Shown piece by piece: positions 10,968 to 56,525 of a DNA stretch of 64,000 nt. The DNA is from Escherichia phage REP4. Made by a program: the position numbers and the translations under genes. The stretch is from sequence record OQ174503.1. One strand, 5' to 3'. Each line of letters begins with the position of its first letter. Positions within the stretch are counted from its first letter, which is position 1. The notes under the pieces are model-generated. The model had not been told where the DNA came from. It ran no database searches and saw nothing but the letters and a program-made list of their open reading frames with translations.

Positions 10968-11137
10968 TCAGTCTTCAACGAAAACTTGCGCCAGGAATTC
11001 ATGTTCATCTTGAATTTGTTTATATAAAGCCATTACAGCATTTATATTAGAGCTATCTACTTTAAGCTGATAAGCATACAACTCGTATAAATTAATTAAA
11101 GCTTTTTGACGTCTAATAAATTCTTCTTTGGATATTT

Positions 11138-11341
11138 TCATTTTGAATGTTCTATAATTAATTTTAAGGCTTCTTCGCTGACAAAAATTTCATCAGGACC
11201 TTCTTCTACAACCCAATCAACCACACGAAGCTGATTAGATAAGAGCTCACATACGAGCTCCTTGTCATAATTTTTAAATAGCTGGTCAATACGTTTCTTG
11301 CGGGCTTTCTTAAGCTGGCGTTTATTTAAACGAGCCATCAA
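11138..11341 (-). CDS. Hypothetical protein (67 aa)
   Basis: ORF track. Confidence 0.5.
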   Translation of the reverse strand: MMARLNKRQLKKARKKRIDQLFKNYDKELVCELLSNQLRVVDWVVEEGPDEIFVSEEALKLIIEHSK

Positions 11342-11856
11342 TAACCTCGGTCTTGACGAGCGAAGTTTTCAGCATTTTTCAGATAATAAAGTTTAAAGAT
11401 TTCTTCAGCCGTAAGACCGAGACCTTGGAACATGTTCAGAACGAAATGAAGAATATCAATCATTTCAAATTTAATTTCCAACTGGTCTTGCGGAGACAAA
11501 TCAGTAATTAGAGTTTCACGACGTTCACCATGCTGTGACTTCCAAGGTTTCCATACAGCAGATGCATCTTTTTCGCCATTGCTCATACCGCCAAGAGATG
11601 TCAGAAGTTCACGGAATTCATCGTCAATATAATCTTTCTGATTACGCAGCCAATCAACAACTTCACCAGCAGTAGCCAAATCATCAGGATGACGGTTATA
11701 TTCAGGTTTATCTTTAGCTAAACGAACCTGCAAAGATTTCTGCATATCAAGCATAACCTGCAGCGGGTCTTTTTCATCACCGAGAATATCCCAGTATTCG
11801 TTTTGAGCTTTATCAGCGCCTTCGATCAGTTGTGAACATTCATTAAAGTATGCCAT
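11338..11856 (-). CDS. 56: dCTP pyrophosphatase gp56 (MazG-like), 172 aa from ATG at 11856
   Basis: MAYFNECSQLIEGADKAQNEYWDILGDEKD... MazG-type fold; trimmed to ATG with AGGAAA Shine-Dalgarno; ~171 aa as in T4. Confidence 0.8.
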   Translation of the reverse strand: MAYFNECSQLIEGADKAQNEYWDILGDEKDPLQVMLDMQKSLQVRLAKDKPEYNRHPDDLATAGEVVDWLRNQKDYIDDEFRELLTSLGGMSNGEKDASAVWKPWKSQHGERRETLITDLSPQDQLEIKFEMIDILHFVLNMFQGLGLTAEEIFKLYYLKNAENFARQDRGY

Positions 11857-11927
11857 TATTTTTCCTTTCAATTCATGGATTAGTAGATTAATTATACAAT
11901 AAATATATAAAGCAATAAGGAGGACAT

Positions 11928-12128
11928 ATGGTACAAAAATTAATGGCACTTGTTAATGCCATAAAAGGTAATAAAAAACGTATAGCTTTTACTATTTCTG
12001 CTATGATAGGAATTTTACTTTGGAATTTTGTTTTATCGCCAGTAGCTATTGCTCATGGCGTTAGTATTCCAGTAATTACTCTTGATACATTCGTAGATTT
12101 AGCATTTGCTTTAGTTGGGTTAATTTAA
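11928..12128 (+). CDS. Small hydrophobic two-helix membrane protein (66 aa), opposite strand
   Basis: Intergenic plus-strand ORF with AAGGAGG 4 nt before ATG; stop overlaps primase stop convergently. Confidence 0.5.
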   Translation: MVQKLMALVNAIKGNKKRIAFTISAMIGILLWNFVLSPVAIAHGVSIPVITLDTFVDLAFALVGLI

Positions 12129-13153
12129 ATCTTAGCATATTTAGATAGCCGCATTTTAGCCATCAGCCCTTGAGCAATATTATTTTTCATATATTCCATA
12201 ATTTGTTCAGGGGTTGCACCTTCCTTTCTAATCATATCATTAACATCTTTTGATTTCCAGGGAGATTTATCCCAAAACATAACCCTTTCTCCTGCATCAA
12301 CCAATTTAGTCATTCGTTTAATAGTGTCAGGATGACGAGGTTCATTATCTAAAACCCATACACGTCTATCTTTAAATGGAACAATTTCTAGGTCTAATTG
12401 ACCACCTGTAATAGCTATACCATTTTCAATAAAAAGTGAATCTATAGGTCCTTCTAGAACATATACATCACCATCTTTAACCCGTTCAACACCATAGATT
12501 TTTGTTGCCTCAGGATAAGCTTTGATGGTGATATATTTTTGAGGAGCATCTTTCTTTAATGCGCGTCCTTGAAAAGACTCAGCTTTTCCATTAGCATTAT
12601 AAATTGGAATAACAAGACGAGGCTCAGATATTTCCTTTTTATATGTTCCTGGTGCTATACTATTAACTAATTTAGGCCATTCAGTTGTAAACCAAAGATA
12701 TTTCCATTTATCCTTTGGAATACAGCGAGCTTTTACGTATTTTATAATTGGATGGTCTTCCGCCAGTTTATCTAATCTAATGCATGACGGAAGAGATTTA
12801 ATTATTTTCTTCTCAGGTTGTTTAGGAAGTTCTTTAGGTTTTTCTACTGGACGACTTTTACCTTTTTCTTTTCTTATTTCAAAGATATACTCACGATATA
12901 AATCAGGTTCAAACTCCTTTAAATATATTCCGATTGGTGCATGATAGTTACAGTTATAGCAATGAATATTTCCTTCATTATTATCACCATAATACCATCC
13001 ACGGGCTTTATTTTGGTCGGTTTTTGAATCTCCACAAACAGGGCATCTAAACCGTAATTTAAAAGTTGAACTATTATTTACTTGTGTGAATTTAGGTAAA
13101 TGAGCTAATGCACGGTATGCAAACTCATTATCAATCCAAGGTATTGATGGCAT
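12125..13153 (-). CDS. 61: DNA primase gp61 (342 aa)
   Basis: N-terminal zinc ribbon CPVCGDSKTD...HCYNCNYH; 342 aa; adjacent to helicase 41 region. Confidence 0.9.
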   Translation of the reverse strand: MPSIPWIDNEFAYRALAHLPKFTQVNNSSTFKLRFRCPVCGDSKTDQNKARGWYYGDNNEGNIHCYNCNYHAPIGIYLKEFEPDLYREYIFEIRKEKGKSRPVEKPKELPKQPEKKIIKSLPSCIRLDKLAEDHPIIKYVKARCIPKDKWKYLWFTTEWPKLVNSIAPGTYKKEISEPRLVIPIYNANGKAESFQGRALKKDAPQKYITIKAYPEATKIYGVERVKDGDVYVLEGPIDSLFIENGIAITGGQLDLEIVPFKDRRVWVLDNEPRHPDTIKRMTKLVDAGERVMFWDKSPWKSKDVNDMIRKEGATPEQIMEYMKNNIAQGLMAKMRLSKYAKI

Positions 13154-15396: not shown

Positions 15397-16824
15397 CTAA
15401 AATTTTAATTCATTTGCCAAAGCATCTAACTGAGCTCGAGCGGATTCGTTTCTTTGATAGCGGTTCTGTTCAGCTTGTATCTGTTGTGAACCTGCTACTT
15501 CGTTCACTTCAGTTGGAGTAGAATCTTGTTCAATTTCTACCCATTTCTGATTTCCTTTTTGAACACCCATCAAAAACTTATTCCATTTATTCTTATCACC
15601 ATATCGTGATTTGATTTGCTTAATGAGTTGCTGTTCAGCCGCTGCTAACTCCTCGGTTTCAATGACCGCAAGCATAAAATCGGCTGTTGCTGGAAGACCG
15701 GCAGATTCTGCAATATCGCTCATGTTAACATCAGAAGAATCCCAAGCTTGCTTACCAACCTGTGCTGCAGTCCAAAGAACAGTTTCGGTTTCAACAGCCA
15801 GAGCACGCAATTCCTCTGCAATAGCTTTAACAGTTGTATAACTATTTTCTGAATAAACTCTGATGCGGCAAGATTTACAAATACCTAGATAGTCAACAAT
15901 AATGATTGTTGGAACAAAATTCTTCTTGAGCTTTAATTCGTTTAAAAGAGAACGAAATGTATTAGCGTCTGCTCCACCAGTAGGATACTGTTTAACGATT
16001 AAACGACCGAGAGTAGATTTCTCACGCCATTTTTCCATTTTTCCTTTATACTCAGCATAAGAAATATGCCCATCATCAATGTCATCAAGAGAAACATCGA
16101 GCATATTAGCGTCAATACGTTTAGCACAGACTTCTTCTGCCATTTCCATGGAAATGTAAAGAACATTATGACCGAGCTGTAAATAATCTGCTGCCAATGA
16201 ACATAGACCTAATGACTTACCAACGTTAACACCAGCCATTAAAACGTTCAGTGTTCCAGTCTCAGCTCCGCCTTTAGTAATTTTATTTAGAATTTTGAGT
16301 TTAAATGGAACCTTACGAGCTTTATTCATATAAGATAGCCAACGTGCTTCGTAGTCATCCATCCAATCATGGCCAACATAGCTATCAAATGAAATTGATA
16401 ATGCTTGACGCATGATGTCAGGAATAGCACCAACATCCGGCATTTTCTTATTTCGTTTTTCCGGAGGAAGTTCAGCATTAGTTTGAATTTCAATTATTTT
16501 AGACGTAGCATTAAACATCGCCCTTTGCTGAACATATTTTTCCGTTTCTTTTACTAACCAGCTGTGGTCTTCCGGAGAATCGGTTAGTTTTGAAATAAGT
16601 GTTTTTACACCAGAATATTCTGTTTCAGTAAATGAACTATTTTCTAATGCAACATTTAACGCATTAATAGATGGAACGCTATGGTACTCATTAACATGAG
16701 ATTTAATTAATTTGAATGTATTTTTAGCTGGACCACTTTCAAAATATTCTGAATCCATATATGGCCAAACTTTTGAAAAATAAGCTTGATCAAATATGAG
16801 ATGAGAAAGAATAATTTCTACCAC
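15397..16824 (-). CDS. 41: Replicative DNA helicase gp41 (DnaB-like), 475 aa
   Basis: Walker A GVNVGKS, RecA-like core; 475 aa; first codon is GTG directly after an in-frame stop. Confidence 0.9.
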   Translation of the reverse strand: MVEIILSHLIFDQAYFSKVWPYMDSEYFESGPAKNTFKLIKSHVNEYHSVPSINALNVALENSSFTETEYSGVKTLISKLTDSPEDHSWLVKETEKYVQQRAMFNATSKIIEIQTNAELPPEKRNKKMPDVGAIPDIMRQALSISFDSYVGHDWMDDYEARWLSYMNKARKVPFKLKILNKITKGGAETGTLNVLMAGVNVGKSLGLCSLAADYLQLGHNVLYISMEMAEEVCAKRIDANMLDVSLDDIDDGHISYAEYKGKMEKWREKSTLGRLIVKQYPTGGADANTFRSLLNELKLKKNFVPTIIIVDYLGICKSCRIRVYSENSYTTVKAIAEELRALAVETETVLWTAAQVGKQAWDSSDVNMSDIAESAGLPATADFMLAVIETEELAAAEQQLIKQIKSRYGDKNKWNKFLMGVQKGNQKWVEIEQDSTPTEVNEVAGSQQIQAEQNRYQRNESARAQLDALANELKF

Positions 16825-16833
16825 ACTTACTCC

Positions 16834-17178
16834 TTAAAAGAATTTAAATTTTTTCTTTGACCTTTTATTAAATGCATCTTGCAGTTGCATTGTAATACAT
16901 TTTTCTACATGAGGAGCTAACTCAGCTTTTCTTTCTTGGTCAAGAACAGCAAAGTCCATTACGACTTTTCCATCAACCCAATCTAATTTTGTCACATACA
17001 CAATGTGTGTAGAACCATCTTCTAGTTTAATGACAATCTCCTGGATAACATTTTCCATGGCAGATTTAATTATCTTAAGAGATTCATTAAAAAGACGTTC
17101 TTTTCTTTCTTCTTCCCCCTCCGAAGAGGGGGATTCGTCGATAATTTCTAGATCTAAATCTAAATCATCTTTATTCAT
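16834..17178 (-). CDS. 40: Gene 40-like protein (114 aa from ATG at 17178)
   Basis: Position between uvsX and 41 as in T4; track start is GTG, trimmed to ATG with GGAAG Shine-Dalgarno. Confidence 0.45.
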   Translation of the reverse strand: MNKDDLDLDLEIIDESPSSEGEEERKERLFNESLKIIKSAMENVIQEIVIKLEDGSTHIVYVTKLDWVDGKVVMDFAVLDQERKAELAPHVEKCITMQLQDAFNKRSKKKFKFF

Positions 17179-18352
17179 TAAATTCTTCCATATCACTTAA
17201 CTGATCTAGGTCAGTTTCTAAATCAGCTGCTGATTTGTTTTTACTTTCTGGAGATTTAAATTTTTCAACCTTTGAGTTAATCAATTCATCAACTTCAGCT
17301 TCAACAATTTCATTACTATCAATAGCACCTAACTGATAAGCACGTTTAATAGCATCTCGGAATGGCTGATGCTTAAATAAAGGACCCCAGAATGTAGTGC
17401 AATTGGTATCTTTTGCACGCCAAGATTTTTCTTCGCGAATCATCTCGCCGGTTTCTTCATCAAGAAATTCACGAGCATACCAACCATTTTTAGGTTTTAC
17501 CACAAATCCTAATTCAAGAGCCATATCTAACAATCCAGAATAAGGATCGATACCACCGTCAAATTTAACATCAATAAAAAATTTACTTTTTTCTTTAACG
17601 GTACGAGATTTTTCTACATTTAGAACAAATTGATACCCCTGAAGATCAGAACCATCTTTAATCTGGCGCTTACCGATAATGAATACAGTATCAGCCGAAT
17701 ACATTACGCCTGTACCACCTGTCATCACGGTTTTACTAAACATTTCAATTGTTTCAATTGTATGGTTAACCGCAACACATGGAATGTTTTTAATACTAAA
17801 ATAAGGAGTAACAATACGGAATAATGACTTCAGCGATTTAGCACGAGTCATATCTGCCACAGATTTTTCATTCAAGGCATCTTCCGTTTCTTTCTTAGAA
17901 GCCATATTACCGATTGAGTCGATAAATACAATAACTTTTTCACCGCGCTCAATAGCTTCAAGCTGATTCACCATATCAATTTTCAGCTGTTCAACTGACT
18001 GAATTGGCGTATGAATTACTCGTTCCGGGTCAACTCCCATGGATCGCAAATAAGCTGGAGTAATACCAAATTCGCTATCATAAAATAGACAAACCGCATC
18101 AGGATATTTGTTCAAATACGCCGCAACCATAGTCAAAGACATATTTGATTTAAAGTGTTTAGAAGGACCTGCAAAAATAGTTAAACCAGACTGCATACCA
18201 CCATCAATCGCGCCAGAAATAGCGATATTGAGCATTGGAATTTTTGTACGGATTACATCCTTTTCATTAAAGAATTTAGATGTAGTCAGTTCAGCAGTCA
18301 TTTTAGAAGTGGAAGCTTTAATCAAACGGGATTTTAAATCTGCAATAGACAT
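17171..18352 (-). CDS. uvsX: UvsX recombinase (RecA-like), 393 aa
   Basis: RecA fold, P-loop GPSKHFKS; size and position as T4 UvsX. Confidence 0.9.
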   Translation of the reverse strand: MSIADLKSRLIKASTSKMTAELTTSKFFNEKDVIRTKIPMLNIAISGAIDGGMQSGLTIFAGPSKHFKSNMSLTMVAAYLNKYPDAVCLFYDSEFGITPAYLRSMGVDPERVIHTPIQSVEQLKIDMVNQLEAIERGEKVIVFIDSIGNMASKKETEDALNEKSVADMTRAKSLKSLFRIVTPYFSIKNIPCVAVNHTIETIEMFSKTVMTGGTGVMYSADTVFIIGKRQIKDGSDLQGYQFVLNVEKSRTVKEKSKFFIDVKFDGGIDPYSGLLDMALELGFVVKPKNGWYAREFLDEETGEMIREEKSWRAKDTNCTTFWGPLFKHQPFRDAIKRAYQLGAIDSNEIVEAEVDELINSKVEKFKSPESKNKSAADLETDLDQLSDMEEFNE

Positions 18353-18429
18353 TCATTTTTTCCATAGGCATCATTATATTTTCCTCACTGGTTAAAGATA
18401 GAATAATTATAACACAATAAATTTAGGCA

Positions 18430-19272
18430 TTAATCGACTGCTATTGGATGAATAGCATTAAACTTATGAAACGCTTCTGATTTTTCTTTGCGCGAAACAC
18501 ACATGCGAAGAACCTTTAATGGCTCGTCTTCTTCACCTAATGATTTTCGTTTTTCAATATTAGAAGTTTTCCAACGAGCTTGCTCTGGAAACTCTTTATT
18601 GATTTGCTCAAGAGCTCTATTATGTTTTGAATTACTACGAATTGAACTACATCCGCCTGGAGCTTGTGCTTTTCCAGACACAACCAGATATTTGAACAAA
18701 GCCAAATGCGGATAACCCTGATTAATTAAATTGAGAAATGCATACATATCTTCGCATAAATCAATTTTTCCATACCCAATTTGTTCTGTAGTAAGTTTTC
18801 CGAGGTCATACCATGTATTCGTGAATCCATATGAATTTTCACGATAATTACCCCAAGATGAAGTAATTTTAAAAATAGGTAGACGAGCATGACCGTGATA
18901 ATACCCGCAATCCATGGCATCTTCAACGTATTGAATCAATTCATAGAACTGTTCACGAGTTAATTGATTAATTTTATCTACGCAGCGACGATCATCTTTC
19001 TTTCGCATTGAACTCATACGAATAGTAGTATCATCATCAATCATCCAAATTCGTTGACCTGCATACATATCAGTAATTGCTTTACGAGTTCCAGCAATTC
19101 CATTAACATCATCAGGAATAGTTATAATTTTAGCCCTAGACCCGTAAGCGTCATAATAAGCTTTTTCTTCATGTTCACGTACTACAATATGAGGTTCATA
19201 ATCAGTCGGAAACATATCAAGGGCAGAAACTGCCCCTACGCGTTGATAGCTTGGAATTACGAATTGAATCAT
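18430..19272 (-). CDS. GT-A-like glycosyltransferase (280 aa) in the beta-gt locus
   Basis: N-terminal FVIPSYQRVG resembles GT-A start; DDD (DxD) motif; unrelated to T4 beta-gt as recalled. Confidence 0.5.
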   Translation of the reverse strand: MIQFVIPSYQRVGAVSALDMFPTDYEPHIVVREHEEKAYYDAYGSRAKIITIPDDVNGIAGTRKAITDMYAGQRIWMIDDDTTIRMSSMRKKDDRRCVDKINQLTREQFYELIQYVEDAMDCGYYHGHARLPIFKITSSWGNYRENSYGFTNTWYDLGKLTTEQIGYGKIDLCEDMYAFLNLINQGYPHLALFKYLVVSGKAQAPGGCSSIRSNSKHNRALEQINKEFPEQARWKTSNIEKRKSLGEEDEPLKVLRMCVSRKEKSEAFHKFNAIHPIAVD

Positions 19273-56163: not shown

Positions 56164-56525
56164 TACAGGCTCTCAGTAAAGGTACGAGCGATAACGTCGC
56201 GCTGCTGTTCCGGAGTCAGAGAGTTAAAGCGAACTGCATAACCGGATACACGGATGGTCAGCTGCGGATATTTTTCCGGATGCTTAACTGCATCTTCCAG
56301 AGTTTCACGACGCAGAACGTTAACGTTCAGGTGTTGACCACCCTCGATTTTAACTGTAGGTTGTGTTTCAATTTCAATTTCACGGGCATGCAAACCATAG
56401 AAAATTTCTGGGTCTACAAAAGAGTCCTCTTTAAAAGTTTTAGAGACAATAATTCGTGCTTGAATACCATCTTCAAAATAAATAGTACCTTTATGCGTGC
56501 CTTCAAGAATTTGATATGCTTTCAT
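56163..56525 (-). CDS. Autonomous glycyl-radical cofactor (GrcA/YfiD-like), 120 aa
   Basis: C-terminal glycyl radical motif [26 protein letters not shown]. Confidence 0.65.

Follow-up and report, generated by a model that had tools for sequence, protein, structure and literature searches.

In phage T4, dam (16846..17625 in NC_000866) lies between gene 56 and gene 61, which is where the original prediction on this DNA had placed it. The corresponding interval of Escherichia phage REP4 carries a small ORF on the plus strand, and this ORF had been proposed to stand there in place of dam. The locus raises the question of whether the small ORF replaced dam, and of what kind of gene, if any, it represents. 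We analyzed a stretch of 64,000 nucleotides of REP4 DNA (sequence record OQ174503.1; this whole stretch is called the window), which is Tequatrovirus DNA with ~96 to 98% identity to phages such as sutha, ime09, HY01, Shfl2, and vB_SsoM_113.

In the ORF listing of the window, gene 56, for a dCTPase/NTP pyrophosphohydrolase (11338..11856, minus strand; PHROG 173, E = 1.5e-46), which is named dCTPase in the annotation of relatives, and gene 61, for the DNA primase (12125..13153, minus strand; PHROG 47, E = 1.3e-106), flank a 268-bp spacer (11857..12124). The only sizeable ORF of this spacer begins with ATG, runs from 11928 to 12128 on the plus strand, and encodes 66 amino acids; it is divergent from gene 56 and convergent with gene 61. 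A Shine-Dalgarno site, AAGGAGG, can be read 4 nt before its ATG (11917-11923, plus strand), and its TAA stop codon overlaps the TAA of gene 61 by 4 nt in the palindrome TTAA (12125-12128). The original prediction had described a spacer of ~270 bp, a plus-strand 66-amino-acid ORF with AAGGAGG, and a 4-nt convergent overlap with the primase stop codon, all of which we recovered. It had also counted the ORF among very few plus-strand genes, and this agrees with the annotation of relatives: the same ORF in Shfl2, Shfl2p035, is the sole annotated plus-strand gene in the first ~73 kb of that genome, and T4 has no annotated plus-strand genes between 13.5 and 68 kb. The small ORF is the only plus-strand gene in the early half (~70 kb) of T-even genomes.

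dam as an optional module

The T4 locus decides the question of replacement. In NC_000866, gene 56 occupies 16270..16785 and gene 61 occupies 17935..18963, and the 310-bp gap between dam and gene 61 is unannotated. This gap contains the small ORF (17738..17938, plus strand), again encoding 66 amino acids, with AAGGAGG and the TTAA stop overlap as in the window. The T4 protein differs from that of the window by 5 conservative substitutions, and 9 more codons differ synonymously. The dam-bearing phage vB_EcoM_FN likewise carries both the small ORF and dam. As T4 has both, the claim that the ORF is present "instead" of dam does not hold. A replacement, that is, a lineage-specific novelty tied to the loss of GATC methylation, would fit the presence of the small ORF and the absence of dam between genes 56 and 61 of the window, but besides being adjacent to dam in T4, the ORF is also found in RB69 and five other genera, and the indel spans only dam and its promoter. 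We give this explanation next to no credence, since the T4 locus already refutes it. The earlier interpretation was half right: dam is absent, but the small ORF is no replacement for it.

The original prediction had named two findings that would speak against it. One, the same arrangement in T4, was observed for the small ORF only, as T4 also carries dam. The other, a dam gene elsewhere, did not materialize, as no Dam-like sequence turned up in the window or in the complete Shfl2 genome. A tblastn search of the 64-kb window with T4 Dam gave no real match (best E = 0.58), and the spacer between genes 56 and 61 has no dam-sized ORF, that is, none of ~260 amino acids with similarity to T4 Dam and a DPPY motif, so that the claimed absence of dam from this interval was borne out. 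In the complete genome of the dam-less Shfl2 (165,919 bp), the best E obtained with the same query was 0.92, the annotation names no methyltransferase, and no plausible methyltransferase ORF has a DPPY-type motif, as the few strings of the form [DNS]PP[YFW] all fall in unrelated frames. Judged by these searches, this is very probably a lineage without a phage Dam.

Local alignments between the window and T4 place the difference precisely. The left arm of the alignment ends at 11916 and corresponds to T4 DNA from upstream of gene 56, with the dam stop codon as its exact limit, while the right arm starts at 11899 and corresponds to the T4 sequence immediately upstream of the small ORF. The junction of a T4-type dam cassette of ~863 bp accordingly lies at 11899..11916 (unstranded), where megablast matches to dam-bearing records split at 11916/11917. 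The ~863 bp of extra T4 DNA consist of dam and an 84-bp segment that carries both the dam ribosome-binding site and the P(E)17.40 early promoter (the positions of this promoter and of P(M)16.53 were taken from the annotation of T4 record X01416). The T4 order is thus 56, oriA/P(M)16.53, dam, P(E)17.40, the unannotated ORF, and 61. The flanking genes, the gene 56 middle promoter, and the small ORF are homologous to those of the window; in contrast, the window lacks the dam-plus-promoter module.

To put the junction in context, we took a census of GenBank phage records (a locus scan of IMG/VR gave 7 loci). With a 301-bp junction-spanning probe and megablast, the junction was uninterrupted in 314 of 503 matching Tequatrovirus records (62%), and in the remaining records the match to the probe split at 11916/11917. 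A Dam at least 90% identical to T4 Dam is encoded by 182 records, which agrees with the share of interrupted junctions; both counts include duplicate records, and the proportions are rough. From these alignments, dam reads as an optional module of ~863 bp between the gene 56 middle promoter and the small gene. T4 and roughly one in three of its close relatives have the module, most lack it as REP4 does here, and the dam-less junction is the commoner of two ordinary Tequatrovirus arrangements. The missing dam is therefore a false lead that can be set aside, and there is nothing special about REP4 in this respect.

GATC is the most depleted 4-nt palindrome under a second-order Markov model, the ratio of observed to expected counts being 0.31 for the window, 0.33 for T4 (with dam), and 0.36 for Shfl2 (without it). 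We considered dam loss as the origin of this scarcity and rejected it, since T4 is equally depleted.

The slot that holds dam in T4 has other contents elsewhere. In WL-3, it is occupied by a homing endonuclease (1054-1704 of the extracted locus), and in ZX14 (1137-1421 of the extracted locus) and R3_1 it is occupied by a MazG-like ORF of 94 amino acids, which in R3_1 is accompanied by a 250-amino-acid protein with an N-terminal signal peptide (slot at 876-1972 of the extracted locus). The slot is empty in RB69 and the Gapriverviruses. Because its contents vary among phages, we regard it as a variable cargo site, of which the small ORF is the fixed right-hand neighbor. A further cassette difference lies next to this one. 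Where T4 has segF, a homing endonuclease gene, the interval from soc to gene 56 in the window (10968-11341, minus strand) contains two small ORFs, of 57 and 67 amino acids, and the second of them is the counterpart of soc.2 in relatives.

The small ORF as a conserved gene

The product of the small ORF matched the entire PHROG 2024 profile (E = 1.9e-30; residues 2 to 66 against positions 1 to 65 of 65), and it is identical (100%) to annotated proteins of WL-3 and other Tequatroviruses. With the window protein (type A) as a query, tblastn found 695 phage records, with identities to the window protein of 85 to 100% in Tequatrovirus, ~52% in Mosigvirus (RB69ORF029w), 46 to 49% in Gaprivervirus, and 40% in Kanagawavirus. 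A divergent query of the ZX14 type (type B) found 918 records, including Klebsiella phages of Jiaodavirus and Marfavirus, and the two types of protein are homologous by hhalign (probability of 96.9%, E = 1.5e-10). The family is narrow all the same: an exhaustive HMM search of 1.84 billion cluster representatives gave 6 matches, and a word-indexed search of 5.8 billion proteins returned close relatives only. The gene order, with gene 56 followed by variable cargo, the small ORF, and the convergent gene 61, is shared by Tequatrovirus, Mosigvirus, Gaprivervirus, Kanagawavirus, Jiaodavirus, and Marfavirus, and every locus inspected shows the ORF in plus orientation, flanked by the gene 56 side and by the primase gene, with which it converges. 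In all, this convergent position is kept in seven genera of T4-like phages. RB32ORF030w, RB69ORF029w, and vBEcoMWL3_gp030, all of PHROG 2024, belong to the same family as the window's ORF and have the same position and orientation, with no difference of substance save that the T4 copy is missing from the reference annotation.

Substitution patterns support a coding frame. For within-genus pairs, dN/dS is 0.10 to 0.16 (Nei-Gojobori), indicating purifying selection. Between genera, synonymous sites are saturated and 46 to 54% of residues are kept, and the frame, the length (63 to 69 amino acids), the start, the Shine-Dalgarno site, and the motifs persist. The conserved motifs are AIKGNKK, WNF, P38, A40, G44, P48, and the acidic region around D/E53, and a GGAGG or GGAG core precedes the start in all homologous loci.

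An incidental reading frame in a spacer kept for its divergent promoters, a gene 61 terminator, oriA, or a late antisense RNA was weighed against these data. In favor of such a spacer are its middle promoter and a minus-strand hairpin that resembles a terminator. The T4 annotation places oriA within ~70 bp of the gene 56 start, with the transcript of the gene 56 middle promoter as its primer, and any late transcript from the plus strand would of necessity be antisense to gene 61. The hairpin (11943..11962, minus strand) lies downstream of gene 61, inside codons 6 to 12 of the small ORF, and consists of an 8-bp stem and a 4-nt loop followed by TAATTTTTGT, with a z-score of just -1.5. Its sequence is identical in T4, but the palindrome is not kept in RB69, which makes its function doubtful. 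No Rfam match was found in 11500-12600. Moreover, the changes are mainly synonymous (the 9 synonymous against 5 conservative differences from T4 and the low dN/dS), and the DNA is saturated across genera, yet WNF, P38, G44, [DE]53, the frame, and the length persist. We therefore consider a purely noncoding spacer very unlikely; an antisense role could exist alongside the coding one. As a separate observation, transcription of gene 61 might stop at the hairpin and its T run, short of the gene 56 promoter.

We think it likely that the ORF is a genuine small gene, conserved in enterobacterial T4-like phages (Tevenvirinae and the related Marfavirus), with a late inner-membrane product, and not a dam replacement. 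The claim of a credible membrane-protein gene on the rarely used strand has stood up, with a conserved family, purifying selection, and a clear transmembrane helix behind it. Counting against the gene is that the expert curators of the T4 reference never annotated it: NC_000866 has no feature for it, and neither do X01416 and K03113. Raw-read assemblies were the only source of a protein identical to that of T4, which neither NCBI nor UniProt lists. The gene is already known as a hypothetical gene annotated in relatives since RB69 and RB32 were sequenced. What the comparisons reported here add is the omission of the T4 copy from the reference, purifying selection, a conserved, nested, late-type promoter, and the standing of the gene as the sole one on the plus strand in the early half of these genomes. 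In our literature searches, no paper named RB69ORF029w or RB32ORF030w in its main text, and nothing relevant came up on T4 ribosome profiling, transcription start mapping, or new ORFs. Because the annotation of NC_000866 omits 17738-17938, T4 transcriptomic, proteomic, and knockdown studies built on that record never looked at this gene.

A predicted late-type promoter nested in the gene 56 middle promoter

All early and middle transcripts of T4 run counterclockwise, and only late ones use either strand (PMC2988020), so a gene on the plus strand has to be late. At 11898-11905 on the plus strand, 22 nt before the ATG, the window has the late-promoter-like sequence AATAAATA, followed by TATAAA; it equals the T4 consensus TATAAATA (-13 to -6) with A at -13 and predicts a start near 11911. 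A at -13 is the commonest natural variant of the T4 late element, present at 9 of 50 T4 sites (PMC2988020), and A/T variation at this position is usual in T4 relatives (PMC1524935). An ATAAATA core occurs 14 to 22 nt before the ATG in all seven genera, though the flanking sequence is unalignable. The motif reads GATAAATA in T4, AATAAATA in RB69, and CATAAATA in VR20, TH15, and Merci, and it is a perfect TATAAATA in ZX14 and R3_1. The rarer bases at -13 (G in T4 and C in the Gaprivervirus and Jiaodavirus loci) count against a late promoter, and the hidden Markov model of Nolan 2006 listed none before RB69ORF029w (PMC1524935).

Elsewhere in the window the motif is strongly avoided. WATAAATA occurs 9 times, against an expectation of 25.9 ± 5.1 from shuffled sequences, with 2 of these sites on the plus strand, and the known late promoter of soc (10967->10960, minus strand) is among the sites that survive. 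Upstream of the small ORF, a consensus scan of the plus strand detected no promoter of the sigma70 type. From the conserved ATAAATA, its avoidance elsewhere, and the lack of a sigma70 site, we infer that a late promoter dependent on gp55 would start transcription near 11911 (about 17722 in T4) and give a leader of 17 nt. Late in infection, gp55-RNA polymerase would start at the AATAAATA motif (11898-11905), at about position 11911, and produce a short leader with a strong Shine-Dalgarno site, from which the putative 66-amino-acid protein under purifying selection would be made. No terminator-like site was seen after the small ORF on the plus strand, so the late transcript would run on antisense into gene 61.

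A parallel is offered by soc, likewise a small late gene with its own TATAAATA promoter (10967->10960, 31 nt before soc) amid early and middle genes. However, soc is on the same strand as its early neighbors and encodes a capsid decoration protein, whereas the small ORF runs the other way, toward gene 61, and its predicted product is a membrane protein. The second plus-strand AATAAATA, at 56477-56484, has no credible ORF or Shine-Dalgarno site after it, and we regard it as probably a chance occurrence. It sits within a minus-strand vs.6/GrcA-like gene; a 77-amino-acid plus-strand ORF that follows it lacks a ribosome-binding site and overlaps minus-strand genes.

The promoter of gene 56 occupies the same DNA. 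On the minus strand at 11891..11914, we read tatTGCTTTA (MotA box TGCTTTA, 11914->11908), an 11-nt spacer, and the -10 element TATAAT (11896->11891), which fits the consensus for middle promoters, (a/t)(a/t)(a/t)TGCTTtA at 12 ± 1 bp from TAtaaT (PMC2988021). This MotA-type promoter aligns with its T4 homologue, P(M)16.53, the transcript of which is given in the T4 annotation as the primer for oriA, and the equivalent promoter of RB69, Pm:16038, was predicted by Nolan 2006 (PMC1524935). The late element lies within the spacer of the middle promoter, so that the two share ~25 bp, back to back on opposite strands. In T4, by contrast, it overlaps the -35 region of the early promoter of dam; its position inside the gene 56 middle promoter in the window follows from the absence of the dam module. 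Transcription from these ~25 bp would thus go leftwards during the middle period and rightwards during the late one. Should the reading as a late promoter be correct, two promoters active at mutually exclusive times would be packed into ~25 bp, one on each strand, and the best-studied phage would have a small late membrane protein still in need of a phenotype.

Predicted topology and possible function of the product

The original prediction had called the product a two-helix protein, which stands in part. Residues ~19 to 42 form one clear transmembrane segment (Kyte-Doolittle 2.0), but an AlphaFold2 model built on the family alignment (mean pLDDT of 75) has three helices (2-13, 16-42, and 52-63), and the C-terminal segment is hydrophobic. 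The first 20 residues include 5 K/R and no acidic residue, and tryptic sites are confined to the first 18. The last 24 are hydrophobic, with two conserved acidic residues (two Asp in the window protein) and no K/R, and end in ALVGLI. For RB69ORF029w, Nolan 2006 gave one transmembrane segment (21-41) and no signal peptide (PMC1524935 supplement).

By the positive-inside rule, the basic N terminus should be cytoplasmic. The protein would then insert in the inner membrane, with its basic N-terminal helix staying in the cytoplasm, residues ~19 to 42 spanning the membrane, and the conserved tail G-x3-P-x-V-x-L-D-T-x-V-D...AL-x-GL either on the periplasmic side (or at the interface) or folded back as a half-hairpin. 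In the second case, the C-terminal segment could be a second transmembrane helix instead of a periplasmic tail.

A cleavable signal peptide would give a different topology: the first 42 residues would be removed by a cut ahead of H43, leaving the other 24, acidic and hydrophobic (HGVSIPVITLDTFVDLAFALVGLI), as a free periplasmic peptide. The basic n-region, the hydrophobic core, the Pro at -5, and the mostly conserved A-x-A before [HN]-G (AIA, ALA, and AVA; LVA in RB69) are as expected for this, and FVLSPxxxA bears a weak local likeness to the signal-anchor-release segment of T4 RI. However, the hydrophobic core of 19 to 24 residues has the length of a transmembrane helix, compared with 10 to 15 residues for the h-region of Sec signal peptides, and type B members carry AATQG or ASTHG. 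The N-terminal AIKGNKK does not vary, although nothing in an n-region alone would call for such constancy. Nolan 2006 reported a negative SignalP result for RB69ORF029w (PMC1524935), and the likeness to RI is not significant. Cleavage is thus unlikely, and we retain the membrane-anchored topology. The RI segment in question pairs residues 28 to 42 of the small-ORF protein with residues 10 to 24 of T4 RI (GILLWNFVLSPVAIA versus AMLGLSFVLSPSIEA; hhalign probability of 2.5%).

Searches for a function gave no lead. Sequence searches of Pfam, NCBIfam, PADLOC, and PDB produced no functional match for the small-ORF protein; a PDB hit to the transmembrane region of NqrE (E = 0.02) was rejected as a match of hydrophobic composition. 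Foldseek of the AlphaFold2 model against BFVD returned family members and noise only, and profile comparison with T4 Imm, RI, and gp55.8 found no significant relation. Database names of members are "hypothetical" or "uncharacterized" save three: one "putative membrane protein," one "putative head morphogenesis protein," and one automatic "Holin."

The last of these names belongs to the member from phage OE5505 in UniRef/BFVD and would agree with a holin or pinholin-like hole former, the protein being small, hydrophobic, probably late, and of one to two helices. Class II holins and pinholins, such as S21 of phage 21, and the T4 RI antiholin are likewise small, membrane-inserted, late proteins with one or two helices, and the short FVLSP...A resemblance to the signal-anchor segment of RI could be read functionally, as speculation only. 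The name, however, is an automatic one on a single member, the others being hypothetical or nameless, and neither Pfam nor PHROGs gave a holin family match; similarity to these lysis proteins is not significant. The window protein lacks the charged, hydrophilic C terminus of holins, ending in ALVGLI with no K/R in its last 24 residues. Its gene lies outside a lysis cassette, with genes 56 and 61 as neighbors in place of endolysin or spanin genes, and T holin (Shfl2p254), RI, and RIII are encoded elsewhere in these phages. It is because of the C-terminal tail and the gene context that the holin reading fails, and we rate it as quite improbable.

Our own reading, from the sequence features above, is that of a putative accessory protein of the inner membrane, transcribed late through gp55 and active at the envelope. 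It might serve there, speculatively, as a small accessory modulator during the late phase. Among more specific roles, lysis timing or lysis inhibition is our leading guess, offered as tentative speculation; exclusion, defense, or counterdefense comes second and is a doubtful one, and membrane-bound assembly comes third and is more doubtful still. A bolder composite reading, which we would hold with little confidence, is that of an overlooked functional late T4 gene, with a gp55 promoter nested in an early or middle promoter, a product that tunes a late envelope event (lysis timing, lysis inhibition, or late exclusion), and a transcript that doubles as an antisense RNA against the primase gene.

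The Gapriverviruses TH15 and VR20 have a second paralogue, of the ZX14 type, which follows the first small ORF in tandem and precedes the primase gene. It lies at ~1700-1895 of the extracted loci and has its own AGGTGG ribosome-binding site; in VR20, its codon 2 is TGA, which leaves either a pseudogene or a gene read from an internal start. The tandem paralogue and its TGA codon in VR20 suggest a family that duplicates and decays, a pattern usual for accessory envelope or exclusion functions.
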